From NCBI GenBank assembly GCA_963745075.1, contig CAVUWV010000036.1, forward strand, positions 64,001 through 128,000: a stretch of 64,000 nucleotides of DNA. The letters run 5' to 3'. Numbering within the stretch: the stretch's first letter is position 1; each line of letters starts with the position of its first letter. Source of the DNA: Candidatus Hydrogenedentota bacterium. Its GTDB lineage: Bacteria; Hydrogenedentota; Hydrogenedentia; Hydrogenedentales; SLHB01. This document shows, in pieces, positions 11,808 through 55,221 of the stretch. The notes under the pieces were generated by a model, which worked only from the letters and a program-made list of their open reading frames with translations, was not told the DNA's origin and made no database searches. The translations under genes and the position numbers were made by a program.

Positions 11808-11843
11808 GAATCAATTCTCCCCAACGTCTTCGTTTGTCGCATT

Positions 11844-12779
11844 CTAACAAATCGTGGGATGCTGGCCGGGCATTGAAGAACATCCCCCTTGATCCCCCTT
11901 CAACGACAGGGTCGACAGAAGTGGAAGTCGTTGAGGGGGAAATTCATAGCAGTTGGTGATGTCACCGCGGAATCTCCTGTACATGGTTCGGATCGGGTGA
12001 TGAAGCGAGATGAAATAAGAGATGAACGCGCAGAAACGGCCGAGTACGCCTTGAAGGCGTGCCCGGAAGGTCTCCAATTTGGCCGGTTGGGCGAGGAGTT
12101 CCCGCATCTTCTTGGATTTGGCGGCTTGCATCACGTTCCATCTCGCGGCCTTCAGGCGGATGGCGTTGAAGACGGCGGGCTTTCCGCGCACGCGGGCCCG
12201 CAGGTCCTCGGGCAAGGCATCGTAGCCTTCCCGGTCGTGACGGAGCACCTGGGTCAGGAAACGTTTGACCGTCACCGCCATGAGTTGGGTCCGTCCGAAC
12301 ATCGCCATGTCGCTGAAGACGTGGGTCGAATCCGCGCGCTGTTTGGCCACGGACAGTTCCAAGGCCTCGATCAACGCCTTGGTCACCCGCTCTTGCACGG
12401 CGGCGGCCAAGTCCAATTCCCGGAACAATTGCCGGTAGCGCTCCACCGTGCGCGACGACATGGATTGGCCGCCCGGGTCCAGGTTCAAGGCGTAGTGAAC
12501 CCCGATGTCCAGCATGTAGGCGTCGACGGCCTGTTGGACCGTCCAGTTCTGGAACTCCATGATGAACATCAGTCCCGCCACGGAATACAGTTCCTTGGTG
12601 GGCGCGCCCATCGATTCGTGAAACCGGTCCGCAAGGGCCGTGGCCGGCATCAGATCCAAGATGACCTTGCGGAAGACGCACTGCCAACCGGTATCCAAGG
12701 CCTTACGGGCCAGGGGCGACAGGACGTGCGCGTAGGGGTCAACCAGGGAGATTTGTCGAGGATCCACAATTTTCCGCAT
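11844..12779 (-). pseudogene. Truncated DDE transposase (DUF772-type N-terminus, internal deletion near 12192)
   Basis: GAPTKELYS...RTVERYR...QRADSTHVFSDM N-terminal segment joins directly to a C-terminal-type RVRGKPAV...LKAARWN segment; the central catalytic region appears to be missing. Confidence 0.7.
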
Positions 12780-12920
12780 AACTGTTGTAAGCCATTTCCG
12801 TTTAAGGGTTTCGGTATAACATGCGCAAAATCCCCTGTCAAGAGGAAAACTCATGCATCTCCTTTGGAAACAATACATTACAAAACAAATAGCAAGCCCC
12901 GGACTTTTGTCGGTCCTGTC
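11905..12920 (-). mobile_element. Internally deleted IS (IS1182/IS5-like) with 18-bp imperfect terminal inverted repeats
   Basis: Left end GACAGGGTCGACAGAAGT; right end reverse complement GACAGGACCGACAAAAGT; encloses a transposase remnant. Confidence 0.75.
12813..12841 (-). promoter_or_regulatory. Sigma-70-type promoter of the transposase
   Basis: TTGACA-17 nt-TATACC on the minus strand, ~35 nt upstream of the ATG at 12779. Confidence 0.6.
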
Positions 12921-12973
12921 TTTGAAGGGGGATGTTCTTGCGTCGTTCGAAACATTGACCACCAGCCAAAAGT

Positions 12974-13009
12974 CGATTACGAGTACGATAACGATTACGA
13001 TTACGACTT
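12974..13009. repeat. Hexamer tandem repeat, (CGATTA)-like x6
   Basis: cgatta cgagta cgataa cgatta cgatta cgactt. Confidence 0.8.
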
Positions 13010-13042
13010 GTGGTCTAGTCGAAGTCGTTAAGGGGGTCATCC

Positions 13043-15718: not shown

Positions 15719-15817
15719 TGGGCCGTCGGTGATATAGCATAAGAAGGAGATGGCATAAATATCGTGGGCTGCGGTCTCGGTCAGAATTCCATGGCTACAT
15801 CCAGAGGAGTGCGGGCA

Positions 15818-18463: not shown

Positions 18464-20732
18464 GACGGCGCGACACGATGCTTTCGCGGCTGCCGGCATT
18501 GTTGCGCTCGGTCTCGCCGTCTTTATCGATGTATTCATGCACGGTGGCGATACCGTTGCCGGGTTCGCCTCGTCGGACGTGCTCGACTACTTCGGCCCCG
18601 TGCGCGGGTTCGCGTTCGGCGAAATCGCCCGCGGCAATTTTCCCCTGTGGGACCCGCACATCTTTGCCGGCAAACCGTGCTTCGGCGCCTTTCAAGCCGG
18701 GCTTCTCTACCCCCTGAACGCAATCTACCTCGTCCTGCCACTGGCAATGGCCGTAAACGCCGATCTCTGGCTTCACGTGACGCTGTTCGGACTCGCCATG
18801 TATGCGTGGGCGCGCAATGCCCTCTCGCCCCTTCCGGCGTTTTACGCCGCGATCGTCGCCATGTTCGGGCCGTACTTCCTCCACGTCATGTGCGGGCACC
18901 TGCCGATGCTCGCCTGTCTGGCGTGGACGCCGCTCCTCTTTCTCGCCTACGACCGGTTGCGGGCGGGCGGGGGATTAGGCTGGGTACTGGTCGGCACCGG
19001 CAGCGCGGCAATGCAGGCGCTGGCCGGCTGGCCCCAAGGCATCTTCATGACTACCGTCGTGTTCGGCCTGTACTGGGCGCTGACCGTCCCCTCCGCAACG
19101 CATCGCCTCCGCGTCACCGGACTAGTCATCATCATCGCGGTGTCCGCTGCCCTGATGGGCGCCGCACAACTGTGGACCGGCATAGAAACCAGCGCCGAAA
19201 GCGTGCGTGGGTCCGGGTTGCCCTACGGCTTTGTGATGAGCTTCAGCCTGCCGCGCGAAAACCTCCTCACCTTCTTGGCCCCCGGTGTCTTCGGCGACGA
19301 CCACCATGTCCCCTACTTCGCGTGGAACCACTTCTGGGAGGCCTGCGCATTCGTGGGGATTGCCACGCTAGTCCTGGCGGCCTTCGGTACCCTCACCGCG
19401 CCGTGGTCGCGAAAATACGTGTTGCTTGCCATGGCGTTCGTGCTGCTCGTGTTGACGCTGGGCGCGTATACTCCGCTCTTTCGCATCCTCTACACCTGGG
19501 CACCCGGATTCGACCGCTTGCGCGCCATGGGCCGGTTTGCCATCTTCTTCTCCATGTTCGCCGCCTTGCTCGCGGGCGAAGGCATCCGAATGCTCCTCAC
19601 TGGGCGTCGCGACCACCTCGGCCCGATCGCGGGCGGTCTCCTCCTACTGGCTGCGGCGCTCGCCTTTGCCGGCCTCGTGACCGCCGCGCCACTGATGTCC
19701 GGCGCGCCTGTCCCCGCATGGATCGGCGCCATGCGGCAGTCCTTTATCGACACCTGGCCCTCCCGTTTTCCGGAGATGCGCGCGCAGGTGGCGTATTCCG
19801 CCTACGCGTTGGAAATCGCCGCGATGACCTGCGTCGTTCTATCCGTCCTTTGCCTGATCGCAAAGAAACGCGCGTGGGCGATTAGCGTGTTGATCGCGTT
19901 TGGCGTCATGGAGATCGGGGTCTTCGCGCGAACACACCGGGGAATGGCACATCTGAACGACACGGCCGCCGCGACGGTTGCGCAAATCTACGCCAGAGAT
20001 CCCGGCGACTATCGCGTCCTCATGCGCGCGGACTACGACGCCCCCATAACCGCCGGCGGGTACGGCGTCTGGGGGTACGATGCGCTCATCCCCGATCGGT
20101 ACGCCCAGTTCTTTGGCCATAGTCTGGGACTCGAAGAACGTGTTGTCGACACGGTCGTGCCCCGCCTTCGGTACCGCCCCATGCACCGAATCGTACGATG
20201 TAAATATGTGGTACCAAACCCGAAATCCAACAAGCCCCCACACGAAGTGCCCGACCCCATGCCCCATTACTTCGTCGTGCACGAGTACCACGTCGCTACA
20301 GGCCAGGAGTCCGTCTTCGCGGCCATGGACCAGGAGACCTTCGACCCGGAACGGACGGTCATACTCGAACAAGAACCCGAACCAAAACCCCAATCCGCTC
20401 CCGGCGAAGACTCCATTCGCATCATAGCCGGCGACACGGATCACACGGTCCTCGAAGCGGTTCTGGCAAGCCCGGGCATTCTCGTCGTCACCGACAGCTA
20501 CGCGAAAAGCTGGCGGGTGCGCCCTGCCGGCGTCGACCCTCCCCAGGAACGGTACGACCTGTTGCCCGCGAATTACGCGCTTCGTGCCGTACCGCTTGCC
20601 GCCGGCGATCATCGCATCGTAATGGAATATGCACCACCCGGTTACGTCTACGGGCGGTGGATCACGCTCGCCGCATGGATTGGATTCGGCCTGGCCTGCA
20701 CGTCTTGGCTGCTTCGTTATAAAGCGTTCTAA
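18456..20732 (+). CDS. YfhO-family (GT-C-like) polytopic membrane protein; probable CTG start at 18456
   Basis: PLWDPHIFAGKP..FQAGLLYP N-terminal motif, many TM helices and a C-terminal PANYALRAVPL..GDH motif. The first TM helix lies upstream of the first ATG (18537). Confidence 0.8.
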   Translation: MSKTARHDAFAAAGIVALGLAVFIDVFMHGGDTVAGFASSDVLDYFGPVRGFAFGEIARGNFPLWDPHIFAGKPCFGAFQAGLLYPLNAIYLVLPLAMAVNADLWLHVTLFGLAMYAWARNALSPLPAFYAAIVAMFGPYFLHVMCGHLPMLACLAWTPLLFLAYDRLRAGGGLGWVLVGTGSAAMQALAGWPQGIFMTTVVFGLYWALTVPSATHRLRVTGLVIIIAVSAALMGAAQLWTGIETSAESVRGSGLPYGFVMSFSLPRENLLTFLAPGVFGDDHHVPYFAWNHFWEACAFVGIATLVLAAFGTLTAPWSRKYVLLAMAFVLLVLTLGAYTPLFRILYTWAPGFDRLRAMGRFAIFFSMFAALLAGEGIRMLLTGRRDHLGPIAGGLLLLAAALAFAGLVTAAPLMSGAPVPAWIGAMRQSFIDTWPSRFPEMRAQVAYSAYALEIAAMTCVVLSVLCLIAKKRAWAISVLIAFGVMEIGVFARTHRGMAHLNDTAAATVAQIYARDPGDYRVLMRADYDAPITAGGYGVWGYDALIPDRYAQFFGHSLGLEERVVDTVVPRLRYRPMHRIVRCKYVVPNPKSNKPPHEVPDPMPHYFVVHEYHVATGQESVFAAMDQETFDPERTVILEQEPEPKPQSAPGEDSIRIIAGDTDHTVLEAVLASPGILVVTDSYAKSWRVRPAGVDPPQERYDLLPANYALRAVPLAAGDHRIVMEYAPPGYVYGRWITLAAWIGFGLACTSWLLRYKAF

Positions 20733-40144: not shown

Positions 40145-40900
40145 CTACATCTTCATCTTCTTGAACTGCCAATCCGGGACATGACGGATGATGAGCATGA
40201 TGTACCGCCAAAACCACGGTACGTAGACGGTATTCTTGCGCTTGACGATGGCTGCGCACATGGCCTTGGCGGCCTGTTGCGGCGAGGCAACGAGGAACAG
40301 TCCCGGCAGGCCGAAGGTCATTTTCGTGTCTACGAAGCCGGGCTTGATCGTCGTCACGTGAACGCCCCGGTGATAGAGCCGGTTCCGCAAGCCTTCCAGA
40401 TACGCGCTCAAGCCCGCTTTGGATGCGCCGTAGATGTAATTGCTCTGACGCCCCCGATCGCCGGCCACGGAAGATATTGCCGCGATGAAGCCCGACCCCC
40501 GTTCTTCAAAATACGCCGCAAACTTTTCCAGCAAGGACACGGCGGACGTCAGGTTCACGTCAATCGTTCGCCGCGCGATATCGAATGCGGCCTGGGCATG
40601 CTCCTGCTCGTCCATAAAACCGTAACACAACACGACGCCGCCCAGTCCGCCATTGCCGGCCTCCACACACTGCGCGACGAAACCCTCGTGCGATTCAAAA
40701 TCCTCCGCTTCCAGGAGCAGCGGGATCGCATCCACCCCGCACCGCGTCCGGATATCCGCCGCGATGGTCTCCGCTTCTTCCTCATCGCGCGCGGCGAGCA
40801 CCACCGTGTTTCCCGCCCCGGCAAACTCATCCGCGAGCGCCCGGGCCATGGCCGACGTGGCGCCAAGCACAGCAATGGTTTCCTGCGCAGGCTCGCTCAT
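40145..40900 (-). CDS. DprE2-like SDR (polyprenyl-phospho-2-keto-pentose reductase)
   Basis: LGATSAMA, SSVAGDRGRQSNYIYGASK and KPGFVDTKMT; coupled to a DprE1-like gene. Confidence 0.85.
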   Translation of the reverse strand: MSEPAQETIAVLGATSAMARALADEFAGAGNTVVLAARDEEEAETIAADIRTRCGVDAIPLLLEAEDFESHEGFVAQCVEAGNGGLGGVVLCYGFMDEQEHAQAAFDIARRTIDVNLTSAVSLLEKFAAYFEERGSGFIAAISSVAGDRGRQSNYIYGASKAGLSAYLEGLRNRLYHRGVHVTTIKPGFVDTKMTFGLPGLFLVASPQQAAKAMCAAIVKRKNTVYVPWFWRYIMLIIRHVPDWQFKKMKM

Positions 40901-42309
40901 GATTCTTCATCCTTCGCCAAGTGCAGCCGCCGCGCCATGCGCGAGGACAAGATCCCCTGCGGATCCAGTCTGTGCCGCTCCTTCCGGAATTCTCCCACGC
41001 GCGGATACATGGCCGCGAATGCCTCCGCGTTCATGCACATATCCTTGGCAAGATACAGACGCCCTCCGTACTCGAGCACGAGCCGGTCGCACTCCGCCAG
41101 GAAGGCCAGCAACCCTTCCCGAATCGGAATGTCCAGCGTCAGCGTGTACCCTTCAAAGGGATACGACAAGAGCCCCGGCCCTTGCGGTCCGAATCGCTTC
41201 AGCACGGCCAGGAACGACGCGCACGAGGCCGCGCTGAGCCGTTCCAGCAAGTTGATTAGACCCTCCTCCCGGCCCGTGGGAAACGTCGCCTGATACTGCG
41301 TGAATCCGCGCTTCCCGTAAATGCGGTTCCAGTTGTGGACCGCGTCGAGCGGGTAGAAGTACGAGTCGTAATCGATGATTTTTCCGTCCGACGACGGATG
41401 GGCCGCGTAAAAAAACGCGTTGAACGTCTTGATGCTCAACGGATTCAACACGATCCCCGGAAAATCGAAAGGAACCCCGGGCTTCTTGCGGGCGCGCGCA
41501 CCAAACGGGTCGTTAGTAACGGCCGGCAGTGCATCCGCCGCCGCGTGTTCGCCGAGCATCAGAACCGAACGCCCAAGGCTCTTGCCTTTCGCCAGACAAT
41601 CCACCCACGCCACCGAATACTGGTAGTCCGCATCCGTCTCGCGGATCGTATCCAGCGTCTCATGGATGTTTTTCAGACGCCGGTAATCGACCTTCATATA
41701 CGCACTCTCGACGCGTTGCAGCCGCACCTTCGCCGTGAGAATCACTCCTGTCAACCCGATACCGCCCACGGTGGCCCAAAACACCCCCGGTTCCACATCG
41801 GCCGAACACACGATTCGTTGTCCAGTCGGCGTCAAGAGCGTCAGCTCGAGGACGTGCGCGCTGAACGTACCGTCGCGATGGTGATTCTTCCCATGCACGT
41901 CGTTGGCGATCGCACCGCCCACCGTGACGTACTTCGTGCCCGGAGTCACCGGTAGAAACCACCCCCGCGGGAGGAATACTTCGAGGATTTCCGCGAGACT
42001 GACGCCCCCTTCGCACTCCAGAACGCCGGCGTCATCGGCAAAGGCCAACATCCGGTTCAACCGGACCGTCGAGAGCACACCGCCCCCGCCGTTTACCGCC
42101 GTATCGCCGTAGCTGCGGCCCAACCCCCGCGCGATGTAGTGCGGTTGTTGGTCCGACTCCAGGATTTCGGCGACCGTCCGGCGCTTTTCCGGCCGGAACA
42201 CGGCGCATTTCTCCGCCGGATATCGGCCCCAACCGGATAGGTTTTGTGTCGACGACGGAATCAATGCATACCCCACATTTCGCGAAACGGATCGAATTAT
42301 AGAACCCAC
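40897..42309 (-). CDS. DprE1-like FAD-binding oxidoreductase (polyprenyl-phosphoribose 2'-oxidase)
   Basis: RGLGRSYGD, PVTPGTKYVTVGGAIANDVHGKNHH, YSVAWVD and GGRLYLAKD; start uncertain. Confidence 0.88.
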   Translation of the reverse strand: MGSIIRSVSRNVGYALIPSSTQNLSGWGRYPAEKCAVFRPEKRRTVAEILESDQQPHYIARGLGRSYGDTAVNGGGGVLSTVRLNRMLAFADDAGVLECEGGVSLAEILEVFLPRGWFLPVTPGTKYVTVGGAIANDVHGKNHHRDGTFSAHVLELTLLTPTGQRIVCSADVEPGVFWATVGGIGLTGVILTAKVRLQRVESAYMKVDYRRLKNIHETLDTIRETDADYQYSVAWVDCLAKGKSLGRSVLMLGEHAAADALPAVTNDPFGARARKKPGVPFDFPGIVLNPLSIKTFNAFFYAAHPSSDGKIIDYDSYFYPLDAVHNWNRIYGKRGFTQYQATFPTGREEGLINLLERLSAASCASFLAVLKRFGPQGPGLLSYPFEGYTLTLDIPIREGLLAFLAECDRLVLEYGGRLYLAKDMCMNAEAFAAMYPRVGEFRKERHRLDPQGILSSRMARRLHLAKDEES

Positions 42310-44096: not shown

Positions 44097-45605
44097 TCAC
44101 GTCGCCGCCCTTGCGGCCGCCGTGGGCGGACGCAACGGGCGTTGCGCCGCCGGTTCGGCCTGCGCTGCCGCCTGTGTGCGCCTTTCCTGAATGTAGTTTT
44201 CGATGGCGATCGTGCGGCTGATATTCGCCAACGCGATGATGAACCAGTAGGGCTCCATGATGCGCACGATGAGAAACGAGATCGTGCCCAGGGAGTGGAC
44301 GATAAGCGCAAGGGTCGTCACGAACGCGCCCAGCGACACGCCGCGCGCGACCCAGTCCGTCGACCAGAGATACCCCTCCCGCGTCGTTTTGAGCAGGCGC
44401 ATCTGTAGAAAGACGAACGCGATAAATCCGATAATCCCGCTTTCGATCAGGACCCGGGCATACTGACTGTCGAGGACCCGGTCCCACGACACACCACCCC
44501 CGAACCACGGCCAAATCCGGAGATTGTACCGCACCTTCTGCCATACGTAGAGCCGTTCGTGCGTCGACTTATCCACCTGCAGCCCGGTGTCATATTCCCC
44601 GATGGCCACCTCCTGGCCGCTGCCTCGTTGAAACGTGTAGTTGACTCGATCCTTCACGTCATCCGGCATGATAAAGGGCGAGGCGATCAGCACCACCATC
44701 ACCGCCACGATGATGGATGGCTTTCGCGACGCAAGTCCCAATACCACCAACCCCGCGATAAACGCGATATACGACGCACGCGACAAGGTGAACAGGAACG
44801 GGAAGAACGCGACCAGAGCGAGACACAGCATCCCCCGCCGCAGCCCTTTGGTCGGCGCTTGGGTATACAGCGCCGCTGCGATGCACATCACCATCACCAG
44901 GTAGCCGCCCAGTGTGTTCGGCTCGGTCCCGCCCTTCTCAAAGGGCGTGCTGACGCGTTCCATCCCGCTGACGAATCGCGTGTAAAGCCCAAACAACGAC
45001 ACGATCATCGCCACGACAAAGAACACGCCTAGCTGTTGCCGCATCTGTTTCACATTCCGAATCGAATTACCCACAAGCACGAAGATCATGTAGAACTCGG
45101 CCATCTTGAGCATCGTAAACAGCGCTTCCTTCTTGTCGAAAAGCGGAATGGAAGCTCGATAGGCCAGCATGGTCGAAAACAAACAGACTCCGTAATAGGC
45201 GGTGATTCCCGGATTGATCGGACTGGGCAGCCAGAGCGATTTGCGCCCTTCAAAGGCAAGTTTTACCAGCGCACCGACAAAGACTACGATAATCAGACCG
45301 TCGTTGTACCGCAGGTTGAGCATGCGATTGCCCATGCCCACCTTGCCCGCTTCGATTTCGGGCGACAGAAGCATGGCCACGATCAGGAAAAAGACCCCCA
45401 GCTCCACCCGCAGGATCGTCAAACCGAAGATCAGCAGGCTCACACCAACGGCGATCGTGATCGTCAGGTTCTGGAAAACACTGTGAAGGACCAGCAGCCC
45501 GATGGCCGACAACAGCATGAACCCGACAAAGAACGGAAACTCGACGCTACTTTCCGCAATTTCACCGCGGCCGACACCGTACTGGGAACGCTGAAACAGG
45601 GCCAC
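44097..45605 (-). CDS. O-antigen ligase / Wzy-like polymerase
   Basis: About 12 TM helices; EPNTLGGYL, TLSRAS, R..W...PWFG.G and DSQY...E.GI.G; GTG start re-called after the repeat element. Confidence 0.8.
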   Translation of the reverse strand: MALFQRSQYGVGRGEIAESSVEFPFFVGFMLLSAIGLLVLHSVFQNLTITIAVGVSLLIFGLTILRVELGVFFLIVAMLLSPEIEAGKVGMGNRMLNLRYNDGLIIVVFVGALVKLAFEGRKSLWLPSPINPGITAYYGVCLFSTMLAYRASIPLFDKKEALFTMLKMAEFYMIFVLVGNSIRNVKQMRQQLGVFFVVAMIVSLFGLYTRFVSGMERVSTPFEKGGTEPNTLGGYLVMVMCIAAALYTQAPTKGLRRGMLCLALVAFFPFLFTLSRASYIAFIAGLVVLGLASRKPSIIVAVMVVLIASPFIMPDDVKDRVNYTFQRGSGQEVAIGEYDTGLQVDKSTHERLYVWQKVRYNLRIWPWFGGGVSWDRVLDSQYARVLIESGIIGFIAFVFLQMRLLKTTREGYLWSTDWVARGVSLGAFVTTLALIVHSLGTISFLIVRIMEPYWFIIALANISRTIAIENYIQERRTQAAAQAEPAAQRPLRPPTAAARAAT

Positions 45606-45627
45606 CGTTAGGGTCTCCGATAGGAAC

Positions 45628-45804
45628 AAATCCGAAATCCAGAATCCAAAATCCAAAACAATTTCAAATGTTCAAATTTCCGAATTGCGAAAACATCCGT
45701 CGCGGTGACGGTTCCGTCACGGTGCAGAACCCAACTGGTCTTGGTCATTCTAGTTTCGGTCATTTGATTTTGTTTCGGATTTCAAGACTCGATATTCGAG
45801 CTTT
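45628..45804. repeat. Second heptamer-based imperfect inverted repeat, related to 5201-5368
   Basis: aaatccgaaatccagaatccaaaatccaaaacaatttcaaatg versus catttgattttgtttcggatttc. Confidence 0.75.
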
Positions 45805-45873: not shown

Positions 45874-48117
45874 TCAAAAATAATACCACCGCTTGGGTTT
45901 TTCCGATGCGGAATCGTCGTAGTAGTAATAGTAGTAGTAATAATGGCGCCGCGTGGCCTTCAGATTGTTCAGCACCACCCCGGCGATATTGGCCCGCGCC
46001 GTCTCCAACAGCTTCTTGCCCCGGATAACCGTCTCGCGCCGCGCGTGGTCGGCCGACACCACATGGACGACCGTATCCACTTCCGTCGCCAACAGCACCG
46101 GATCGGTCACGACCAACATAGACGGCGCGTCGCAAATCACCAGATCGAATTCACTGCCCAATTGTTCCAGCAGCTTCCGCATGCGATCGGACCCGATCAG
46201 TTCCGACGGGTTGGGCGGGACCCGCCCGCTGGAAATAATCCACAGGTTCTCGACCCGGGTCGGCCGAATGACCGTGTGCACGTCGTATCCTTCACGGAGC
46301 ACGTCCGCCAGCCCCGGCCCGCGTTCCATCCGCAAGACGTGGTGCACGTGAGGGCGCCGCAGGTCCGTATCGATGACGAGCACGCGCAACCCGCTGTCCG
46401 CAAACGTGACGGCCATGTTCACCGCCGTTGTCGTCTTGCCTTCCGCGGGCACGGAACTGGTCACCATGATCGTCTTGGGCTTCTCGTGGATCGTCGCCAA
46501 TTGGAACGTCGTACGCAAGGTCCGGTACGCTTCCGAAATCGGCGATTTCGGATCGTGCTGCGTTACAATGCAGGCATCCACCTGCCCTTCGTCGCTCATC
46601 ACCACGTAATCCCCGCCGCGGCGGACCTTCTGCTTTCCGAACCGCATCTGAGGGATCGTGCCGATCACGTCCAGCCCGATGTACTCCGTCACGTCTTCAA
46701 TCGACCGGATGGACGTGTCGTTCATTTCCGCCATCACGGCCAACCCGAACCCGATCACCAGCCCCACAAACGCACCGATGATGAAGTTCATCCACGGCTT
46801 GACCTGCTGCTCGACCGGCACTGCGCTGGCCGTCGCCACGCTTTGCCGCTCCACGTAGCCCTGCTCCCGGTTCAATCCCGTTGCGATCTCGAGCCGCTTG
46901 TCGAGCAGGGTGTTGAATTGACGCCGCAACTGATCGGCCTCGCGAACTAGGTTCTGGTATTCCTTGTCTTTGTCCGACAACGACGGAATGATCTGCTCCA
47001 GTTCCTTGATCAGGCGACGGTTGGTGGAACTCTGAATGTCGAGCGACGTGAGCTGCAGTTGCAGCGAGAGGTATTGATTCCGTAATTGCTTCCGATCCTG
47101 CAAAAGGTTCATGCCGGACGTCACCCCTTCGTCCACCTCCTGCATGGCCTGCAAAATCGCCTGCTCCTTCTCTTCGATACGGGCCTGGAGATCGCGCAAC
47201 GGACCCTGGTGCGGCTGCCATATCACCGAAAGCTGAATTCGCTGCCGTTGCAGTTCGTTCAGTTCCCCAAGCAGTCCCGTCACCACGTCGTCGGAAATCT
47301 GCCCAATGGACAGCGGAAGCTGTTCGTTCTTCGCGGCGAGCTGATCCTCGATGCCGCCCATCTTAGCCCGGATTTCTTCCTGCTGCGTTTCGGCGTTTGT
47401 CACTTCGCGGGCGAGCGACTGGATCTCGTTGACTACCTCGTCCTTCGTCCGGAACCCCATGCTCTTCCGGAACTCCCACAGCTTGCCGTCCGCCTCGTCG
47501 AGATCCTGGCGAACGTCGTCCAACTTTTGCAGCACGAAGCTGTGCGTCTCTTCCTCTTCTTCCAGCAGAAATTCCCGGTTCCGATCGATAAACACCCGCG
47601 CGCCAAATTCCGCGATCCGCTTGGCCTCCGCCTGGCTCGAAGCCGTCGTCGTGATCTGTATCATGCCCGCTTCCTGATTGGGCTCGATGCGCACGCGGCT
47701 CTCGATCTCCGCGACCTTCGCCAGAAACTCCTCTTCCGTCGAAACTCCGCCGCTCGGCAGACCGTCCGCGATCCCCTGCTGGATGAGTGCGCGGGTGAGA
47801 TCCTCGGCCACACCGTGACGGCTGACCCGCTCCACCAACGCCTGCGGCGTGTTCAGGAAAAGCGGTTTGGCCCCCACGTCTTTGAGCAGGCTTTTCTCCC
47901 AGGGAGACTGTTCCACCCGCAGTTGCGCCGATCCGACGAACTGGGGCTTCACATCGAAACTGAACAGACCGAAGATTCCGTACCCCACCGATGCCACCAA
48001 GGTGAACACGGCGATGAGACGCCACCGGCGCAGCCCCACGTTCAGGATATAGCGGAACTGGTTCTCGCGGGGCGCCTGGCCGGCCGCCTGCTCGAGGCCT
48101 GCAGTTTCCATTGCCAT
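45874..48117 (-). CDS. wzc: Wzc-type polysaccharide co-polymerase / BY tyrosine kinase
   Basis: Two TM helices flank a coiled-coil periplasmic domain; SEAYRTLRT, Walker A SSVPAEGKTT, IDTDLRRP, DAP and a C-terminal run of 8 Tyr. Confidence 0.93.
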   Translation of the reverse strand: MAMETAGLEQAAGQAPRENQFRYILNVGLRRWRLIAVFTLVASVGYGIFGLFSFDVKPQFVGSAQLRVEQSPWEKSLLKDVGAKPLFLNTPQALVERVSRHGVAEDLTRALIQQGIADGLPSGGVSTEEEFLAKVAEIESRVRIEPNQEAGMIQITTTASSQAEAKRIAEFGARVFIDRNREFLLEEEEETHSFVLQKLDDVRQDLDEADGKLWEFRKSMGFRTKDEVVNEIQSLAREVTNAETQQEEIRAKMGGIEDQLAAKNEQLPLSIGQISDDVVTGLLGELNELQRQRIQLSVIWQPHQGPLRDLQARIEEKEQAILQAMQEVDEGVTSGMNLLQDRKQLRNQYLSLQLQLTSLDIQSSTNRRLIKELEQIIPSLSDKDKEYQNLVREADQLRRQFNTLLDKRLEIATGLNREQGYVERQSVATASAVPVEQQVKPWMNFIIGAFVGLVIGFGLAVMAEMNDTSIRSIEDVTEYIGLDVIGTIPQMRFGKQKVRRGGDYVVMSDEGQVDACIVTQHDPKSPISEAYRTLRTTFQLATIHEKPKTIMVTSSVPAEGKTTTAVNMAVTFADSGLRVLVIDTDLRRPHVHHVLRMERGPGLADVLREGYDVHTVIRPTRVENLWIISSGRVPPNPSELIGSDRMRKLLEQLGSEFDLVICDAPSMLVVTDPVLLATEVDTVVHVVSADHARRETVIRGKKLLETARANIAGVVLNNLKATRRHYYYYYYYYDDSASEKPKRWYYF

Positions 48118-48122
48118 CCGAG

Positions 48123-49640
48123 TCAGTTTCTCCGGGATTCCGTCACGTCTTGCGGTTGTCGTATCGCGGGACCCACAATCTTCGAATTCGCCGTCACGTC
48201 CAGCATCCGATCCCACGTCACCGTCTCCGGGGACTCATGGACCGTCGGCGTCAGAAACATCATCAGCTCCGTCTGGGCATGCGACTTCTCCGTGTGCTTG
48301 AACAGATTGCCCAACAGCGGAACCTTACCCAACCCGGGCACCCGCTGCTCCACGTCCTGCAGATCGTTGCGGTAAATACCGCCCACGACCAGGGTCTGTC
48401 CGTCGCGCACGTTGGATTCGCCCTGGTATTTCCGTACGGATCGAATCGGAATTCCATTGCTGGACCCGGTGGGGGAAGAAACCTCCGGCTCGAACTCCAG
48501 TTTCACATAGGTCCCTTTGTCATCCTTGAGCACATGCGGCGTCACGGCCATCTTGATTCCCAAATCGAGAAAACGCACGGAGAAATTCTCCCGGCCCGAC
48601 GCCTCGATACCGAATTCCGTGTACGGAAATTCATCCACCATCGAAATCTCGGCCTTCTTATGGTTCACCGTGAGAATGTTCGGATTGGCCAGCAATTCAG
48701 CTTGGTTGTCCGCGACCAAGGCATCCAACAGCATCCCGAGATCGACTTGCTGGTTCATGAGCCCGAAAAACATCTGTCCCACTTTCGGGATTTGCGCGGG
48801 CACATTGAGCAGACGGTCAAAGGTCGTTCCGTCCACAAAGCTTCGCCCCCTGTCGTTGTTTTGGTTTCCGTTTCCATTTATCCCGCCAAAATTTTCGTTG
48901 TTCAGAGGGGATGCCGACTGTCCCTTCAAGGCGTTGATATTTGTGTCCTGGCTTGGCAATGGGTAATAGCCCCCGTTCACATCCGTTCCTTGGACGAACC
49001 AGCGAACGCCCAACTCTTTCATCGCGCCGGCCTTCACCTCTGCGATCTTCGCTTCGATGCGCACCTGCGTGAGTTGGCTCTGCATCTTGTCCAGTCGCGC
49101 CGTCACATTGAGAATGTTCTGAATCGCGTCCGGCGTATCCGTTATGATTAGACTGTTCGTATCCGGATCGTACGCAATACTACCGCCCGCGGACGTCATC
49201 CCCTGTAACGCCACGCTGAGCGTTTCCGCGTCCGCATTATTCAGCGGGAGAATCTCCGTCTTCATGTCCGGCATCCGGTAACCGCCGCCAATCTCCGGCG
49301 CCGTTCGCGACACGGTCACGCGCGGATTCTTCAACACCGACGAAAGGGCCGTGCGTATCCGCGCCGAGGCTTCGTTCTCCGACAAACCGGCGATGGTAAC
49401 GTTTCCGATGAACGGAAGCTGAATGTTTCCGTCGCTGTCGATTTGCGTCGTCGTCGACACTTCCGGCCGCCGGTAAACGTCGACGAAGACCAGTTCGCCG
49501 GGCTCCAAGACGCCCTTGGGCGCTGGAACGTCCTGTGTCGCCGCCGGCAATGCAGCCAGCACCGCCACCAGCCACACGATCCATTGTGGACCGGACCGGT
49601 CACGCAGTTGCGGTTCGCGTTCTCTCAGATGACGTATCAC
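48123..49640 (-). CDS. Fusion of a Wza-type Poly_export domain with Secretin_N and secretin domains
   Basis: LEPGELVFVDVY...DSDGNIQLPFIGNVTIAGLS..EA...I..L...LKNPRVTV; then ILPLNNADAE...YDPDTNSLIITDT; then QVRIEAKIAEV...ANPNILTVN...VRDGQTLVVGG...VPGLGKVPLLGNLF...TELMMFLTP. GTGA overlap with the upstream gene. Confidence 0.88.
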   Translation of the reverse strand: MIRHLREREPQLRDRSGPQWIVWLVAVLAALPAATQDVPAPKGVLEPGELVFVDVYRRPEVSTTTQIDSDGNIQLPFIGNVTIAGLSENEASARIRTALSSVLKNPRVTVSRTAPEIGGGYRMPDMKTEILPLNNADAETLSVALQGMTSAGGSIAYDPDTNSLIITDTPDAIQNILNVTARLDKMQSQLTQVRIEAKIAEVKAGAMKELGVRWFVQGTDVNGGYYPLPSQDTNINALKGQSASPLNNENFGGINGNGNQNNDRGRSFVDGTTFDRLLNVPAQIPKVGQMFFGLMNQQVDLGMLLDALVADNQAELLANPNILTVNHKKAEISMVDEFPYTEFGIEASGRENFSVRFLDLGIKMAVTPHVLKDDKGTYVKLEFEPEVSSPTGSSNGIPIRSVRKYQGESNVRDGQTLVVGGIYRNDLQDVEQRVPGLGKVPLLGNLFKHTEKSHAQTELMMFLTPTVHESPETVTWDRMLDVTANSKIVGPAIRQPQDVTESRRN

Positions 49641-51877
49641 GAGGTGCCCTCTTCGTTCCCATCCGCCTCGGCGGAAGGGCCGGTTGATTGCGGGTTCGGG
49701 CTGCGAATGATCAGTTCCTGGCCGACAAAAATGACACTCTGGGAAAGGTCGTTCCACTCCATAAGGTCCGCCACACTTACGCCGTGCGCCGCCGCGATCC
49801 CGGACAAGGTGTCGCCCGCGACTACTTGGTACACGGCTTCCGTCGCCGGCACTTCAACCTGCGCCTCGATTTCGGATGCCTCCGCCGGCGCGGCGGAATC
49901 CGGCTCCGTCGAGTCCGGTTGCTCCATCGATCCCGCGTCGCTTTCGGGTTCTGACACCGGTTCGGAAGGCGTATCCGCCTTGTCGGTTCCTTCTTCCAGC
50001 GCGGGCGCCGTCGCTTCCCACGGGACATCGTCTTCCGGTGCAGTGGCAGATGAGGAATCGGCCGCGCTGTCGTCCGCCCCGTTCGTCTGTTCTTCCACCG
50101 CGGCCGCCTCGTCCTTCTGGCTGCGTTCGCGAAGGACGTCCATCTTCGCGCGCAACTCTTTCTTAGTCGCGGGATCGATCCCCGGGCTCTGTACCGCATG
50201 GGTCCATTCCACCACCGCGAGCTGTTCGCACTCGCCACGTTTCGCCGGTGCTTGTGCGCGCTCGGCCAAGGCCCGGTACAACGTGCCGAGTTCCGTATAG
50301 TCCACGTCCGGGGTATGGTTGTCCTGCATCCCAACCGCCTGAAGATAGTACGATCGCGCCGAGTCGTCCTGGCCCAACTTCGCGTACGAGCGCGCGAGGA
50401 TTCGCACCGCCGGCACCGCGGCCATCGGATCCAGCAGGCGTAGCTCCGGATCGCGCAGTAGCTCGATCGCTTGCTGATACTCGCCAAGCTCGTAGTACAG
50501 CCGCCCCATCAAGGTCCGCGCTCGCGGCGCCTTTGCGTGCGTCGGGTACGCATCCAGAAATTGCTTGAACATTTCGATCGATCGCGTATACACCTGCTGG
50601 CGTTCATCCACCGACGATGGTTGCAGCAGTTGCAAGGTGAATGCCGCTGCAAACTGGGCATCCGCCCCCAACTCGCTTCCCGGGTTCCGCTTTGCAAACG
50701 CTGCGTAAGTAGCTGACGCCTGCCGGTACTCCCCTTTCGCGGCCATCGTGACCGCCTCGTTATAAAGCGCCGTGGGGTTCGATACGTTTTCGTCGTACCA
50801 CGTATACGCCTCGTAACCACCTACGGCCACGGCCGCCAGTACAATAAGTCCCGCCGCCACGCGCAACATGCGGCGGCGTGCATCCTTTCGATGTCCCGAA
50901 CGGCGGCGGCGCGTCTTGGGTCCCGTATGGCGGAGATACATCGCCTCTTCCGCCTCTTCAATCGTCGGAATCCGTACACGTTCGCCAAGCTCCTCCGGTG
51001 CGACCGGCGGCTCCACATTCAAACCGCCTGACGGCCGCGCGGGGGAGGGCTCTTCCACCGCTTCAAACGGAACGGAAGACACCGGTTCAGCCGCGGACGG
51101 ATCGAGCGTTTTCTCGACTTCCCGCAGACTGGGCTCCGGCGCTTCTTCTTCCACCGGTGAAAACTCAAACGGCGCGGCCTCTTCCAACGGCGGCGCGGCA
51201 TCAGCCGATATTTCTTCGGGGTGTTCCTCCACCGGCGCCGGCTCTTCGGGCGGCTCAACCGGGGGTTCCGGCTCCGCGGCTTCCGGGGGCGATACGGCTT
51301 CCTCCAACAAAGGCGGAGGAGGTTCCAACGGCACATCGGCCACCGGCGCCGCTTCTTCGGCGGATTCGGCGCGGGGCGTCAATTCAAACGGGGCGGATTC
51401 CTGCTCTGCCGGTGACGGCGTCCCCGCTTCGGGTCCGCGAGCTTCTTCATCTTTCGTCAATTCCGCGATCATGTCGCGGAGGTGCTCCATCGCCGCACGA
51501 TTATCCGATTCCGACGGGTATTCCTGTTCCGGTGGCGGTTCATTGTCCACCGTGGGCGCCATGGAGGAATCTACGTCAGCGACACCCTCTTCATAAAAGC
51601 TCAGCGGTTGTTCGGGATCCAGATCCCGCGTCGGCTCGGGTTCGGGTTCGGCAGGGGGTGGAGTTTCCGGTTCGGCAGGCGGCGGTGCGGTCAGCCCGCT
51701 CATTTGAATGAATTCGAGGTCGCCTCCGCGTTCCTCAGGCGAGACTCCGCTGTCAAGACGCGGATCCGCTTGGAGACCCTCCTGAATTTGTTCGTCAAAT
51801 TCATCGAACGGGGCTTGGGAGTCTTCCTCCGGTTCGCGTCCTTCCTCGTCCTCGTGATTGTCAGGATGCTTCGTCAT
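49637..51877 (-). CDS. Bitopic membrane protein: acidic Pro/Glu-rich N-terminus, TM helix, TPR (BamD/CpoB-like) repeats, C-terminal LysM
   Basis: Basic stretch followed by a TM helix; ALYNEA...FA..NP.S..ADAQF; YQVVAGDTLSGIAAAHGVSVADLMEWNDL...IFVGQEL. Confidence 0.85.
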   Translation of the reverse strand: MTKHPDNHEDEEGREPEEDSQAPFDEFDEQIQEGLQADPRLDSGVSPEERGGDLEFIQMSGLTAPPPAEPETPPPAEPEPEPTRDLDPEQPLSFYEEGVADVDSSMAPTVDNEPPPEQEYPSESDNRAAMEHLRDMIAELTKDEEARGPEAGTPSPAEQESAPFELTPRAESAEEAAPVADVPLEPPPPLLEEAVSPPEAAEPEPPVEPPEEPAPVEEHPEEISADAAPPLEEAAPFEFSPVEEEAPEPSLREVEKTLDPSAAEPVSSVPFEAVEEPSPARPSGGLNVEPPVAPEELGERVRIPTIEEAEEAMYLRHTGPKTRRRRSGHRKDARRRMLRVAAGLIVLAAVAVGGYEAYTWYDENVSNPTALYNEAVTMAAKGEYRQASATYAAFAKRNPGSELGADAQFAAAFTLQLLQPSSVDERQQVYTRSIEMFKQFLDAYPTHAKAPRARTLMGRLYYELGEYQQAIELLRDPELRLLDPMAAVPAVRILARSYAKLGQDDSARSYYLQAVGMQDNHTPDVDYTELGTLYRALAERAQAPAKRGECEQLAVVEWTHAVQSPGIDPATKKELRAKMDVLRERSQKDEAAAVEEQTNGADDSAADSSSATAPEDDVPWEATAPALEEGTDKADTPSEPVSEPESDAGSMEQPDSTEPDSAAPAEASEIEAQVEVPATEAVYQVVAGDTLSGIAAAHGVSVADLMEWNDLSQSVIFVGQELIIRSPNPQSTGPSAEADGNEEGTS

Positions 51878-52976
51878 GGAGTTCTGTCAACAAGACCCTG
51901 TCGGGATTCGTTCGCGCAGCCTTTAACAGAAGCCGGTTCGCGCGCGACGTCGACACCGTACCCGCCCGGCGCTGGCCGGCAACGGAACCGGCCGGCCGCA
52001 GCGAGTCTTCCAGTTCAATCGGCATTTCATGGGCCGGACGCGGCGCCTTCATAAACCGGTCGGCGATTCGCGCACGCTTCTCGTCGTCCGGCAGCGTCGT
52101 CTTTTGAATCGTGTGTAATACGATAGCCTGTCCAATATGCCGCGTACGCAGTTGGCACGCCAGCAACAACGCGTTCCGGCACAAGGTCACCGTCACCCGC
52201 GGGCTGCCCTCCGCGTACGAATGAATCACTTTCACCGCGTCGTCGTCAAACTCCGGGCCCCGTTCCGAAGCCCCGGCCTGGCGCAGCCGGAAATCGATGA
52301 GGCTCCGCGTGTCCCGTTCGCTCAGCGGACCCAGCGTATACGTCATGTTTACCCGTTGCTCGAAATTGGGCGCCGCCCGCAACACGTGCATCCACTCCAA
52401 CTGAGCGAACAGGATCAGATTGATCAGTTTGTGCTGCGGCGTCTCCAGGTTCTGCACAAGACGCAACAATTCCAACTGGCCACGCTTATTCAGATTCTGC
52501 GCATCGTCGATAATAAGCGTGTTGATTCGTTCGCGTTTCGTCAACAGGTAGTGGTACAACGACTCCATGTACCCCACAAAAGACCGCGTTTCCGGCCGCA
52601 AGCCGAACTGCGTGACGATGCTCTCAAGAAGCGAAAAACTGGTCCAGGACGGAATGGGCGACGCGATCACCGCCGTGTTGTACCGGTCCGAACGGGTCCG
52701 CATCCCCGTGAGCAGCTTGCGCAACAACGTGGTCTTGCCCGTGCCGTAGCTGCCGAGCACCACCGCGATGCCGTGCCGCTCGTCGACCGTGTTCCAGAGA
52801 TGAAAAAGACACTCCCGGTGGGCGTTGGTGGCGTAATAGTACGCGGGATCCGCCGTCGCCGCGAAGGGTTGTTCGGTCAGGCCAAAGTGGTCCAGCAACG
52901 ACAATCCCGTGCGTCCCATTCCCGGCTCGTCCGGACCCCAAACGTCTTCGTTCGGCGTGGCCGCGTGTCCATTCAT
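51861..52976 (-). CDS. ExeA/GspA-family AAA ATPase
   Basis: HFGL.EQPF...DP.YYY, Walker A GSYGTGKTT, Walker B LIIDDAQNL and ID.RL..AG. Confidence 0.9.
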   Translation of the reverse strand: MNGHAATPNEDVWGPDEPGMGRTGLSLLDHFGLTEQPFAATADPAYYYATNAHRECLFHLWNTVDERHGIAVVLGSYGTGKTTLLRKLLTGMRTRSDRYNTAVIASPIPSWTSFSLLESIVTQFGLRPETRSFVGYMESLYHYLLTKRERINTLIIDDAQNLNKRGQLELLRLVQNLETPQHKLINLILFAQLEWMHVLRAAPNFEQRVNMTYTLGPLSERDTRSLIDFRLRQAGASERGPEFDDDAVKVIHSYAEGSPRVTVTLCRNALLLACQLRTRHIGQAIVLHTIQKTTLPDDEKRARIADRFMKAPRPAHEMPIELEDSLRPAGSVAGQRRAGTVSTSRANRLLLKAARTNPDRVLLTELHDEAS

Positions 52977-53233: not shown

Positions 53234-53262
53234 ATTCTAGCCAAGCGCTTAGAGGGTGTCAA
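53234..53262 (-). promoter_or_regulatory. Sigma-70 promoter for the ExeA-TPR/LysM-secretin-wzc operon
   Basis: TTGACA-17 nt-TAGAAT on the minus strand. Confidence 0.65.
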
Positions 53263-53454: not shown

Positions 53455-55221
53455 ATGAAGCGCGAGTTTCTTGTACTCCTCTCTGGACCGCTCCAAGGAA
53501 GCGAGCGGGACATCGTCGGGTCGTTGACGATCGGGCGCAGTCCGGAAAATGGCTTGCAACTGAACGACTTACAGGTCTCGCGCAAACACGCCGTCATCCA
53601 GCAGACGCCCGCCGGCACCATTGTCCGCGACCTCGGCAGCGGCAACGGCACATATATTGGGGATCGCCGCGTGCTTGAGTACCGCCTCTCCGACGGCGAT
53701 GTTATCCGCATCGGTCCCATGGATATGAAGTTCGAAATCCGCGTCGGCGATGCCATGACCACCCCGCGCCCCGTCCAGAGTCCGCCCGAGGGTTCCGACC
53801 CGCGCCAGAGCGTTCGGTTCCATGCCGAAGAGTCGGCCAGCAAGATCGAGGCAAACGCCGCAGATAACGTCTACCGCACCTTCTTCCAGGCCCCGCAGGA
53901 CGCCGTCAGCGCCGAGCAGTTGCGGGACGCGCAGAACCGCCTCGCCGCGGTCTACGAGGCCAACCAAATCATCTCGAGCGAGCGGGATTTACGGAAACTC
54001 TTCGAGCGCGTGATGGACCAGATCTTTGGTCTCGTCCCCGCCCACAACGGCGTTATCCTCCTCAAAGACGAGCGGACCGGCGAACTCGTAACCGAATACG
54101 TCAAGCGGGGCAACAAACAGTCGGAAGTCGCCATGAGTTCGAGTATTGTCTCACGCGCCTTCGAGAACGGCGAAGCCGTAATCACCTACAACGCCGCGAG
54201 CGATGCCCGGTTCGAGACGGGCGCCAGCATCATTGCCCAGAACATTACATCCGCCATGTGTACCCCCCTCAAGCACCAGAACGAGATCCTCGGCATCATC
54301 TACGTCGATACCCGCGGCACACAGAACGCCTTTGCCCAGCGCGATCTCGAATTGCTCGTCGCCGTCTCCGGACCCGCGGCCACCTCGATCCGCAACGCCC
54401 AGTATCTCGCCAAAATCCAAAAGGCCTACCAGGACACGCTCATCGCCCTGGCCAACGCCATCGAACTCCGCGACCACTACACGGTTGGCCACACCTGGCG
54501 CGTGACCAACTTCGCCCTCGAAATCGCCCGGACCCTCGAGTGGTCCGAAGAAAAGCTCCGCGAATGTGAAATGGGCGGCGTGCTGCACGACGTCGGCAAA
54601 ATCTCCATCGACGACGCCGTCCTGCGCAAGCCCGGCGGACTTACCGAGGACGAGTTCGCCCAGATGCGCGTCCATCCCGAACGCGGTGCCCGCATGATGC
54701 AGGACATCGAATTCCTTGTTCCCCTGATTCCTTATGCCCTCTACCACCACGAGCGGTATGACGGCAAAGGATATCCCTTTGGATTGAAAGGCGAAGAGAT
54801 CCCCTTGGAAGGACGTCTCCTCGCCGTGGCCGATACGCTGGACGCCATGACCAGCAACCGGCCGTATCGGAAAGGCCTCGATCCCGAGTTCGCCATCTCG
54901 GAGATTGAAAAGGGCAAGGGCTCCCAATTCGATCCCGTCATTGTCGACGCGTTGATCAAATGCTACCGCGACGGCAAAATCGACCGCATCCTTCAGGACT
55001 ACTACAAGAAAGACGAGAAGAGCGTCGCGTGCCCCTTCTGCAGCACCTACATCCGGTTACCGGAAAATGCCTCGGTGGACTTCGAGTTTCAGTGCGGCGT
55101 TTGCCACCGCCAAATCCGTTTGCAGCAGCAAAATGAGGCCTACTTCGGCGAGCTCGTCACTCGAAACGACTCGTCCCCGTCAAGCTCCTCCTCCTCGGAC
55201 GATTCCGAGCCCGCGGAGTAA
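53455..55221 (+). CDS. FHA-GAF-HD-GYP cyclic dinucleotide phosphodiesterase with a C-terminal zinc ribbon
   Basis: IGRS...VSRKHA...DLGSGNGT (FHA); SAMCTPL (GAF); HDVGK...HHERYDGKGYP; CPFC...CGVC. Confidence 0.9.
   Translation: MKREFLVLLSGPLQGSERDIVGSLTIGRSPENGLQLNDLQVSRKHAVIQQTPAGTIVRDLGSGNGTYIGDRRVLEYRLSDGDVIRIGPMDMKFEIRVGDAMTTPRPVQSPPEGSDPRQSVRFHAEESASKIEANAADNVYRTFFQAPQDAVSAEQLRDAQNRLAAVYEANQIISSERDLRKLFERVMDQIFGLVPAHNGVILLKDERTGELVTEYVKRGNKQSEVAMSSSIVSRAFENGEAVITYNAASDARFETGASIIAQNITSAMCTPLKHQNEILGIIYVDTRGTQNAFAQRDLELLVAVSGPAATSIRNAQYLAKIQKAYQDTLIALANAIELRDHYTVGHTWRVTNFALEIARTLEWSEEKLRECEMGGVLHDVGKISIDDAVLRKPGGLTEDEFAQMRVHPERGARMMQDIEFLVPLIPYALYHHERYDGKGYPFGLKGEEIPLEGRLLAVADTLDAMTSNRPYRKGLDPEFAISEIEKGKGSQFDPVIVDALIKCYRDGKIDRILQDYYKKDEKSVACPFCSTYIRLPENASVDFEFQCGVCHRQIRLQQQNEAYFGELVTRNDSSPSSSSSSDDSEPAE

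Follow-up and report, generated by a model that had tools for sequence, protein, structure and literature searches.

A Poly_export domain joined to a secretin beside wzc in Hydrogenedentota: a candidate secretin-type exit for polysaccharide

Can a secretin serve as the outer-membrane exit for a polysaccharide? This question is raised by one gene in a window of 64,000 nucleotides (nt), i.e., the whole stretch of DNA that was analysed, from an uncultured soil bacterium of the phylum Hydrogenedentota (contig CAVUWV010000036.1, positions 64,001 to 128,000). The gene lies directly upstream of wzc and encodes a protein in which the Poly_export domain known from proteins for outer-membrane polysaccharide export (OPX) is joined to a Secretin_N domain and a secretin core; it is referred to here as the OPX-secretin fusion. 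An earlier note, made from the letters of this DNA, had described a single uninterrupted open reading frame (ORF) with these three domains and a Sec signal, and without a lipobox, an SLBB domain or the pore helix of Wza. It had proposed that a Wzc-docking domain was grafted onto a secretin barrel, providing a different way out of the cell for a polysaccharide or glycoconjugate. The description of the gene was borne out by the analysis reported here, and the proposal is weighed below.

The frame of the fusion gene is open on the minus strand from 49640 down to its TGA at 48125-48123, and a possible start lies as far up as 49757. The start adopted here, GTG at 49640, overlaps with the stop codon of the preceding gene (GTGA) and sits after a purine-rich GAAGAGGG stretch; it gives a protein of 505 amino acids (aa), and most of the listed homologues have about 470-540 aa. 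The ATG of wzc, at 48117, follows 5 nt past the stop of the fusion, as had been claimed. The first 45 residues contain a hydrophobic stretch, called by eye as a Sec signal, and no Cys, so that the protein has no lipobox; the signal peptides of the homologues finish in A-x-A/Q-type sites (likewise by eye). In a Pfam scan with a reporting limit of E <= 0.01 and the gathering scores as cut-offs, Poly_export (PF02563), Secretin_N (PF03958) and Secretin (PF00263) all scored above their cut-offs (Table 1), within boundaries that agree to about 15 nt with those first proposed, and the Secretin match covers profile positions 1-167 of 169. At this limit, the protein gave no match to the SLBB, Wza_C, STN, N0 or AMIN families. 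The position of the SLBB domain of OPX proteins is taken by Secretin_N, and the C-terminus consists of the secretin core and a short conserved tail. Compared with the OPX family, the protein has the Poly_export domain and the pairing with a polysaccharide co-polymerase (PCP) gene, and lacks SLBB, lipobox and Wza_C. Compared with the secretins, it has PF00263 and Secretin_N, and lacks N0/STN and any gene linkage to the type II and type III secretion systems (T2SS, T3SS), type IV pili (T4P), tight adherence (Tad) pili or filamentous phages. The NCBIfam secretin equivalogs all remain below their cut-offs, namely, GspD (205.4 vs 351.35), PilQ (193.4 vs 284.35), SctC (115.9 vs 238.45) and MshL (92.5 vs 250.2).

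The N-terminal domain is identified as Poly_export, rather than as an N0, STN or AMIN domain of an ordinary secretin, by profile, by sequence and by fold. In the PDB, the N-terminal 90 residues match OPX proteins only (phmmer; WzaB, 9n9a, at E 4.6e-9, followed by PslD and Wza). In an AlphaFold2 monomer model, built from a 40-sequence alignment, the mean predicted local distance difference test (pLDDT) score is 70.9, with the three domains above this mean (Table 1) and low scores in the linkers and in a 90-residue Asn/Gly-rich insertion. Foldseek against the PDB matched the modelled N-terminal domain to WzaB, the class-3 OPX protein of Myxococcus xanthus (9n9a; E 2.6e-6, 69 columns, root-mean-square deviation 0.9 A, 35% identity), and also paired it with Wza D1 entries. 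When the N-terminal region alone was used in a word-based search, the only matches were 15 proteins of the same family, and no free-standing OPX protein came closer.

The part of this domain that contacts Wzc in known systems can be traced in the fusion. In Escherichia coli, the forearm of the helical arm of Wzc touches Wza D1, and deletion of D1 abolishes colocalisation (PMC12881504), and WzaB of M. xanthus binds WzcB through its alpha1-beta5 loop, which carries R106-R107 and is required for export (PMC12819527). In the phmmer alignment, L103-K104-N105-P106-R107 of the fusion aligns with the R106-R107 loop of WzaB. In 40/40 family members, position 104 is K or R and position 106 is P; position 107 is R or K in 38/40. 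A complex prediction for the periplasmic part of Wzc (aa 58-442) with aa 38-192 of the fusion (score 0.13, mark 0.32) gives no verdict either way on binding.

Beyond a flexible linker (aa 112-127), the remainder of the protein resembles a regular secretin. The top PDB fold matches of the model are GspD, PilQ, ExeD, InvG, pIV and RcpA (Foldseek, E 2e-17 to 1e-9), and the hallmark C-terminal secretin residues are invariant across the 40 sequences. The profile, sequence and fold matches of the two halves support the view that a putative Wzc-docking domain has been grafted onto a secretin.

The gene neighbourhood points in the same direction. The fusion is the third of five co-directional genes, encoding, in this order, an ExeA-like ATPase, a TPR-LysM protein, the OPX-secretin fusion, Wzc and a Wzy-like protein. 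Judged from its sequence, the product of the downstream gene is a textbook PCP-2a Wzc, with two transmembrane (TM) segments, a periplasmic coiled coil of roughly 390 aa, a Walker A motif and, at the C-terminus, eight Tyr in a row; the Walker A motif and the Tyr run are invariant in 10 orthologues. Synteny was assessed in 14 loci from the genome collection, and the flanks were compared in nine related loci. Gene order is kept in 14/14 loci as far as the DNA extends: Wzc is downstream of the fusion in all 14, the Wzy-like gene follows wzc in 11 (the other three stop inside wzc), the TPR protein precedes the fusion in 12 (the other two begin inside the fusion), and the ATPase is present in nine (the other five are too short). 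In a survey of 135 species-level Hydrogenedentota genomes, the fusion (E <= 1e-40) was found in 67 and a Wzc match (E <= 1e-60) also in 67, with per-family tallies equal to those of the fusion. Wzc is encoded on the same contig and strand, at most 1 kb downstream of the fusion, in 63 of the 67 fusion-bearing genomes (coordinates compared by eye). In three others (G111, G101, G032), it is on another contig of a fragmented assembly, and in G102, which has only a fragment of the fusion, no Wzc match was obtained. Only one of the 68 genomes without the fusion has a Wzc match (G130, 38% identity). The homologues thus adjoin wzc and a wzy-like gene, and not protein-secretion or pilus genes: neither in the window nor in the flanks of the nine related loci were T2SS, T4P or Tad genes found, the lone pilin-type exception being an isolated N_methyl protein in the flank of locus L016.

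A canonical Wza encoded elsewhere in the genome could have been the true partner of this Wzc. Besides the fusion, the genome (6.8 Mb, 36 contigs) contains two Poly_export genes and six secretin matches. On contig C10, an ordinary 455-aa OPX protein is encoded near an exosortase, with its own PCP gene downstream. On contig C22, an ordinary XrtA-type exopolysaccharide (EPS) locus (L107, G000:C22:18000-30470) encodes a 291-aa OPX protein with Poly_export and SLBB; after it come, in this order, a chain-length determinant, an ExeA-like ATPase (274.7 bits to TIGR03015), a tyrosine kinase, an initiating transferase of the Bac_transf type and a Wzx-type flippase; this locus also holds a pyruvyl transferase divided between two ORFs. 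Because both of these ordinary OPX genes have PCP genes of their own, no canonical Wza serves the Wzc of the module.

The reading preferred here is that the fusion is probably the outer-membrane exit for a polysaccharide made by the Wzc/Wzy pair, its secretin barrel replacing the helix pore of Wza or the beta-barrel partner of class-3 OPX proteins. With less assurance, and with the balance tipped only slightly in its favour, it may represent a fourth structural class of OPX translocon, i.e., a gated secretin barrel that is wired to Wzc through a Wza D1 graft and acts as a polysaccharide conduit. Of the two parts of the original proposal, the docking-type domain on a secretin stood, given the identity of the N-terminal domain, the linkage to wzc and the intact gene in many genomes (see below); passage of a glycan through the secretin barrel is proposed from domain logic and synteny.

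The mechanism that we infer, including docking on Wzc, the oligomeric state and the roles of the two upstream genes, would run as follows. The Poly_export domains would form a periplasmic base ring and dock on the arm tips of Wzc, as Wza D1 and WzaB do. The polymer would be made by the Wzy-like protein under the control of Wzc, from units built by enzymes encoded outside the locus, and would pass through the Secretin_N ring, the secretin vestibule and the gate to reach the cell surface. The covalent link to the secretin would substitute for the lipid anchor and the SLBB rings of an ordinary OPX protein. That the lipid anchor could be dispensable fits with WzaB, in which lipidation is needed only for reaching the outer membrane and oligomerising there (PMC12819527). 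Such a fusion would be topologically coherent, since both parents have their N-terminus deepest in the periplasm and their C-terminus in the outer membrane. The ATPase and the TPR-LysM protein may contribute to secretin assembly or to peptidoglycan attachment, which is the weakest step of the mechanism. They are reminiscent of accessory proteins of known secretins, e.g., ExeAB with ExeD, MshM/MshN with MshL, and the LysM-bearing TsaP with PilQ.

Several points weigh against an exit through the secretin. The Wzy_C match is marginal (Table 1), and the protein could be a ligase, not a polymerase. Secretins are 12-15-mers with a periplasmic gate that is opened by a pilus or pseudopilus. The proposed mechanism accounts neither for the mismatch in symmetry with the octameric Wzc nor for the opening of the gate, and no pseudopilus-like component that could open the gate is present. 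Furthermore, no glycosyltransferase, Wzx flippase or initiating transferase gene was found near the module, either in the window or in the nine related flanks. Lastly, the ATPase was rejected as proof of a secretin-assembly module. A paralogue of it is found in the secretin-free OPX-PCP locus on contig C22, so that an ExeA-like ATPase alone is no mark of secretin assembly; it is a regular part of the EPS loci of this organism.

In one alternative, which is considered unlikely, the fusion is a periplasmic or outer-membrane scaffold, namely, a class-3-like OPX protein that is anchored by a secretin ring, and the glycan leaves via a Wzp-type beta-barrel encoded elsewhere. This would agree with the Poly_export domain being closest to class-3 OPX proteins (WzaB, 9n9a; TIGR03027), and with the reliance of class-3 systems on a separate porin (PMC12819527). 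However, neither the conserved module nor its flanks include a beta-barrel gene, and both the near-complete secretin profile and the invariance of the hallmark residues in 40 sequences are hard to square with a role as an anchor only.

No more probable than the scaffold is a channel that exports a protein, a fibre or a glycoprotein, with Poly_export borrowed so that Wzc serves as the inner-membrane platform and the Wzy_C protein acts as an O-ligase for the cargo. To our knowledge, every characterised secretin passes proteins, pili or phage, and ExeA-like ATPases are known from T2SS and mannose-sensitive haemagglutinin (MSHA) pilus systems. In addition, the TIGR03097 model, named 'putative O-glycosylation ligase', gives the Wzy_C protein 45.8 bits, which is under its cut-off of 188.1. 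On the other hand, apart from the N_methyl protein of L016, neither the window nor the nine flanks contain a pilin operon, a GspE/PilB-type ATPase, a platform protein or a candidate cargo gene, and Wzc has no known role in protein export. An exit for polysaccharide is therefore still preferred over both alternatives.

The distribution of the fusion bears on whether it is a genuine gene. A search of a clustered protein collection gave 504 matches at E <= 1e-3 among 8000 scored candidates. Among the 120 listed, all but two contain the three Pfam domains, the exceptions being P0033, which is short and lacks PF02563, and P0090, which lacks PF03958. Where a source is named for the listed homologues, it is Candidatus Hydrogenedentes/Hydrogenedentota, and the gene is labelled 'GspD' or 'polysaccharide export protein' in the databases. 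Within the phylum, the fusion is present in 45 of the 86 high-quality genomes and in 36 of 66 genera, always at one locus, and almost always as a single, full-length copy without internal stops and at 46-82% identity; two families lack it (0/23 and 0/10 genomes). In the alignment of 40 members, 56 columns are invariant, and these are distributed across the three domains. When 1.84 billion representatives were searched exhaustively with phmmer, there were full-length fused relatives as distant as 32% identity (P0132, P0134 and P0139, each with the three domains), which together with P0281-P0286 form a distant fused clade. A metagenome scan with the alignment of these distant fused proteins yielded 80 loci, which encode ordinary secretins, none of them matching the Poly_export profile, and a profile search with the same alignment returned no taxon names for this clade.

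It is next to impossible that the fusion is an artefact of mis-assembly or a recent, accidental and functionless joining: all sequences are from metagenome-assembled genomes and a few copies are fragmentary or broken (L024, G042, G076), yet the ORF is intact in 67 of the 135 genomes and occurs among at least 120 protein clusters, with the identities and invariant columns given above, and the window is part of a contig of about 398 kb. One assembled read piece of 151 nt (49236-49386) crosses the Poly_export/Secretin_N linker, which is weak evidence and possibly not independent. The read-run pieces are otherwise short and of low depth, the best DNA run holding 0.37 of the words and perhaps being the source sample, and no RNA run is among the sequencing runs listed for this sequence.

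Some records deserve separate mention. The broken-looking copies are L024:5480-8795, where the fusion match is limited to query residues 43-362 and the Wzc match to 444-725; G042:C135:5953-9148, where the fusion is in two parts and Wzc appears without its periplasmic part at the threshold used; and G076:C4:21711-25346. These could be assembly errors or cases of decay. Five records (L018, L019, L020, L023, P0080) are labelled Bathyarchaeia archaeon, Nitrospirales or Nitrospiraceae, yet their operon comprises the same five genes (50-60% identity); these bins probably bear wrong taxon labels.

As for the origin of the fusion, the non-fused proteins that come closest to it in the exhaustive search are short secretins, comparable in length and with an STN/N0-Secretin_N-Secretin layout (e.g., P0177, P0170, P0180). 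Because these relatives carry STN/N0 at the place of Poly_export, the fusion looks like a short secretin in which N0 was exchanged for Poly_export. In T2SS and T3SS, N0 is the secretin domain that faces the inner-membrane platform. A quick maximum-likelihood tree was built from the Secretin_N and secretin part of 48 proteins (20 fused and 28 non-fused), with support from the Shimodaira-Hasegawa-like approximate likelihood ratio test (SH-aLRT) only. In this tree, a branch with 98% support sets 20/20 fused proteins apart, along with the non-fused P0140, and this may be compatible with a single origin of the fusion. The Poly_export domain is 24-27% identical to the two other OPX proteins of the genome, and between the secretin part and the genome's other secretins identity reaches about 30% at most; these low values indicate that the fusion is old, and a recent fusion from a paralogue in the same genome was rejected on the same grounds. 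Secretin matches in this genome are also found in open frames of 1042-1112 aa, and three giant proteins elsewhere (P0137, P0151 and P0221; 3491, 1947 and 1680 aa), each with a secretin domain at the end, matched the query in 17, 11 and 7 stretches, respectively.

The coordinates of the fusion, its domains and the neighbouring features are given in Table 1.

Table 1. The OPX-secretin fusion, its domains and neighbouring features in the window
Feature	Coordinates	Strand	Evidence and remarks
FHA-GAF-HD(HD_5) protein, candidate regulator	53455..55221	+	Pfam; divergent from the ATPase gene over a 478-nt gap
Sigma-70-like promoter match, TTGACA-17-TAGAAT	53234..53262	-	11/12; within the 478 nt ahead of the ATPase gene
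ExeA/GspA-like AAA_22 ATPase, soluble (371 aa)	51861..52976	-	Pfam AAA_22 62.7 bits; TIGR03015 157.8 vs cut-off 324.5
Bitopic TPR-LysM protein (746 aa)	49637..51877	-	Pfam LysM 54.6 bits and TPR families
OPX-secretin fusion gene (505 aa)	48123..49640	-	Signal peptide, Poly_export, Secretin_N, secretin core; Pfam and open frame
Poly_export (Wza D1/PES) domain, aa 41-111	49308..49520	-	Pfam 66.7 bits vs cut-off 28, E 2.1e-18; phmmer vs PDB; Foldseek; pLDDT 86-92
Secretin_N (N3-type ring-building) domain, aa 128-189	49074..49259	-	Pfam 51 bits vs cut-off 28.2; pLDDT about 80-89
Secretin core	48240..49067	-	Structural start aa 192; Pfam Secretin aa 307-467 (nt 48240-48722), 138.4 bits vs cut-off 27.5; pLDDT mostly 80-90
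Wzc, PCP-2a tyrosine autokinase (747 aa)	45874..48117	-	NCBIfam TIGR01007 187.1 bits vs cut-off 108.05
Wzy_C/O-antigen-ligase-like membrane protein, putative polymerase	44097..45656	-	Pfam Wzy_C 35.4 bits vs cut-off 31.7

For the module ATPase, the closest Atlas clusters bear the names ExeA or GspA. The TPR-LysM protein begins with an acidic, Pro/Glu-rich part, which a single TM segment separates from TPR repeats in the periplasm and a LysM domain at the C-terminus. Its first 330 residues (window 50890-51877, minus strand), ahead of the TM segment and presumably cytoplasmic, are strongly acidic, Pro/Glu/Ala-rich and without a family match, and in the related loci the protein is conserved only from about aa 250-360 onward. 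The promoter match upstream of the ATPase gene is a lead only, since a scan of the region gave three matches and 2.6 were expected from shuffles. The divergent FHA-GAF-HD protein may regulate the module operon; its gene accompanies the module in L012, L013 and L015 only (94, 94 and 73% identity) and was not found in the more distant loci. In the nine related loci, the flanks are variable and mostly contain housekeeping genes such as those for tRNA synthetases, NAD synthase, chorismate synthase and thioredoxin-family proteins.

Other genes in the window are related to glycan metabolism. About 2 kb downstream of the module, a DprE1/DprE2-like pair (window 40145-42309, minus strand) comprises a decaprenylphosphoryl-ribose oxidase (504.9 bits vs 500) and an SDR reductase (183 bits, below the DprE2 cut-off of 250). 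The pair suggests a polyprenyl-phospho-arabinose-type donor in a non-actinobacterial genome; no copy of the pair was detected by tblastn in the related loci. Far upstream of the module, a cluster of glycan genes (window 9720-20732) encodes a heparinase II/III/alginate-lyase-like protein at 9720-11807, a glycosyltransferase fusion of the WbsX type at 13043-15718, a protein combining a beta-helix with ankyrin repeats at 15764-18463 and, as a weak match, a YfhO-like membrane protein at 18537-20732.

Comparison with known systems places the fusion between OPX proteins and secretins. As in the Wza-Wzc system of E. coli group 1 capsule and colanic acid (class-1 OPX), a Poly_export (D1) domain is set opposite a PCP-2a Wzc that carries a Tyr cluster at its C-terminus, and the OPX gene is immediately upstream of wzc; in E. 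coli, D1 touches Wzc (PMC12881504). Unlike Wza, the fusion lacks a lipoprotein anchor, the SLBB D2/D3 rings and the Wza_C helix, its membrane part being a secretin beta-barrel. This barrel is expected to be a 12-15-mer, whereas Wza is an octamer.

With the class-3 OPX systems, i.e., WzaB-WzpB-WzcB of M. xanthus and the XrtA/PEP-CTERM cassette, the fusion shares the closest relative of its N-terminal domain, an OPX part that is poreless and depends on a beta-structured outer-membrane protein, a basic residue in the Wzc-binding loop, and an ExeA-like ATPase in the locus, as in the C22 locus of this genome. It differs in that its partner is a covalently joined secretin, while that of class-3 OPX proteins is an 18-strand-type porin bound via a C-terminal motif, and in being unlipidated. 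The models of the XrtA/PEP-CTERM cassette also remain below cut-off (pepcterm_export, TIGR03027, 39.1 vs 180; pepcterm_TyrKin, 156 vs 230.65; and pepcterm_ATPase, TIGR03015, for the ATPase, as in Table 1), and the exosortase genes are on contigs C10 and C31, not on the contig of the module (C36).

The GspD, PilQ, InvG and pIV secretins have Secretin_N and a complete core in common with the fusion, which in size and layout is near the short N0-N3-secretin forms; they differ from it by having N0/STN in place of Poly_export, by their equivalog models and by the presence of secretion or pilus genes nearby. The combination of an AAA_22 ATPase, a peptidoglycan-binding or TPR membrane protein and a secretin gene recalls ExeA-ExeB (GspA-GspB) and MshL-MshM-MshN. 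In the module, by contrast, the ATPase is soluble, LysM rather than PG_binding_1 is found on the neighbouring TPR protein, and a paralogous ATPase belongs to a secretin-free EPS locus. A secretin has also been proposed to release a non-protein polymer in the PilQ/GspD 'slime nozzles' of cyanobacteria and myxobacteria (PMC12475490). Those are ordinary T2SS/T4P secretins with depletion phenotypes and no known link to a polysaccharide machine, whereas the link of the fusion is known from the gene alone.

No description of a Poly_export-secretin fusion was found in the literature searched, with subscription journals and the InterPro architecture tables outside the reach of the search. A term search of the accessible text of the slime-nozzle paper (PMC12475490) did not find an OPX-secretin fusion. 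In the available portion of the paper that defines the three OPX classes, the word 'secretin' is used once, loosely, for the beta-barrel (10.1101/2022.02.11.480155), and an Agrobacterium paper, again as far as its text was available, applies it to Wza itself.

Currently, three OPX classes are described, namely, the helix pore, the KpsD-type form, and the poreless OPX protein with a separate beta-barrel; a secretin exit, if true, would be a fourth solution. Secretins, which are wide gated channels, would then be tied for the first time by gene structure to the Wzx/Wzy/Wzc pathway. As a 'Rosetta-stone' fusion, the gene would be the first gene-level evidence of secretins in glycan export, and would bear on the debated role of PilQ and GspD as slime nozzles. 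It would, likewise, suggest for the ExeA-like ATPases of many EPS loci a function in outer-membrane-channel assembly that is common with T2SS. The fusion offers a testable system for the passage of glycans through secretins, for the coupling of an octameric Wzc to another symmetry, and for the role of ExeA-like ATPases in exopolysaccharide loci. For the Hydrogenedentota, a poorly known and apparently uncultured phylum for which all records found are metagenome-assembled genomes, it annotates a conserved machine of the cell envelope.

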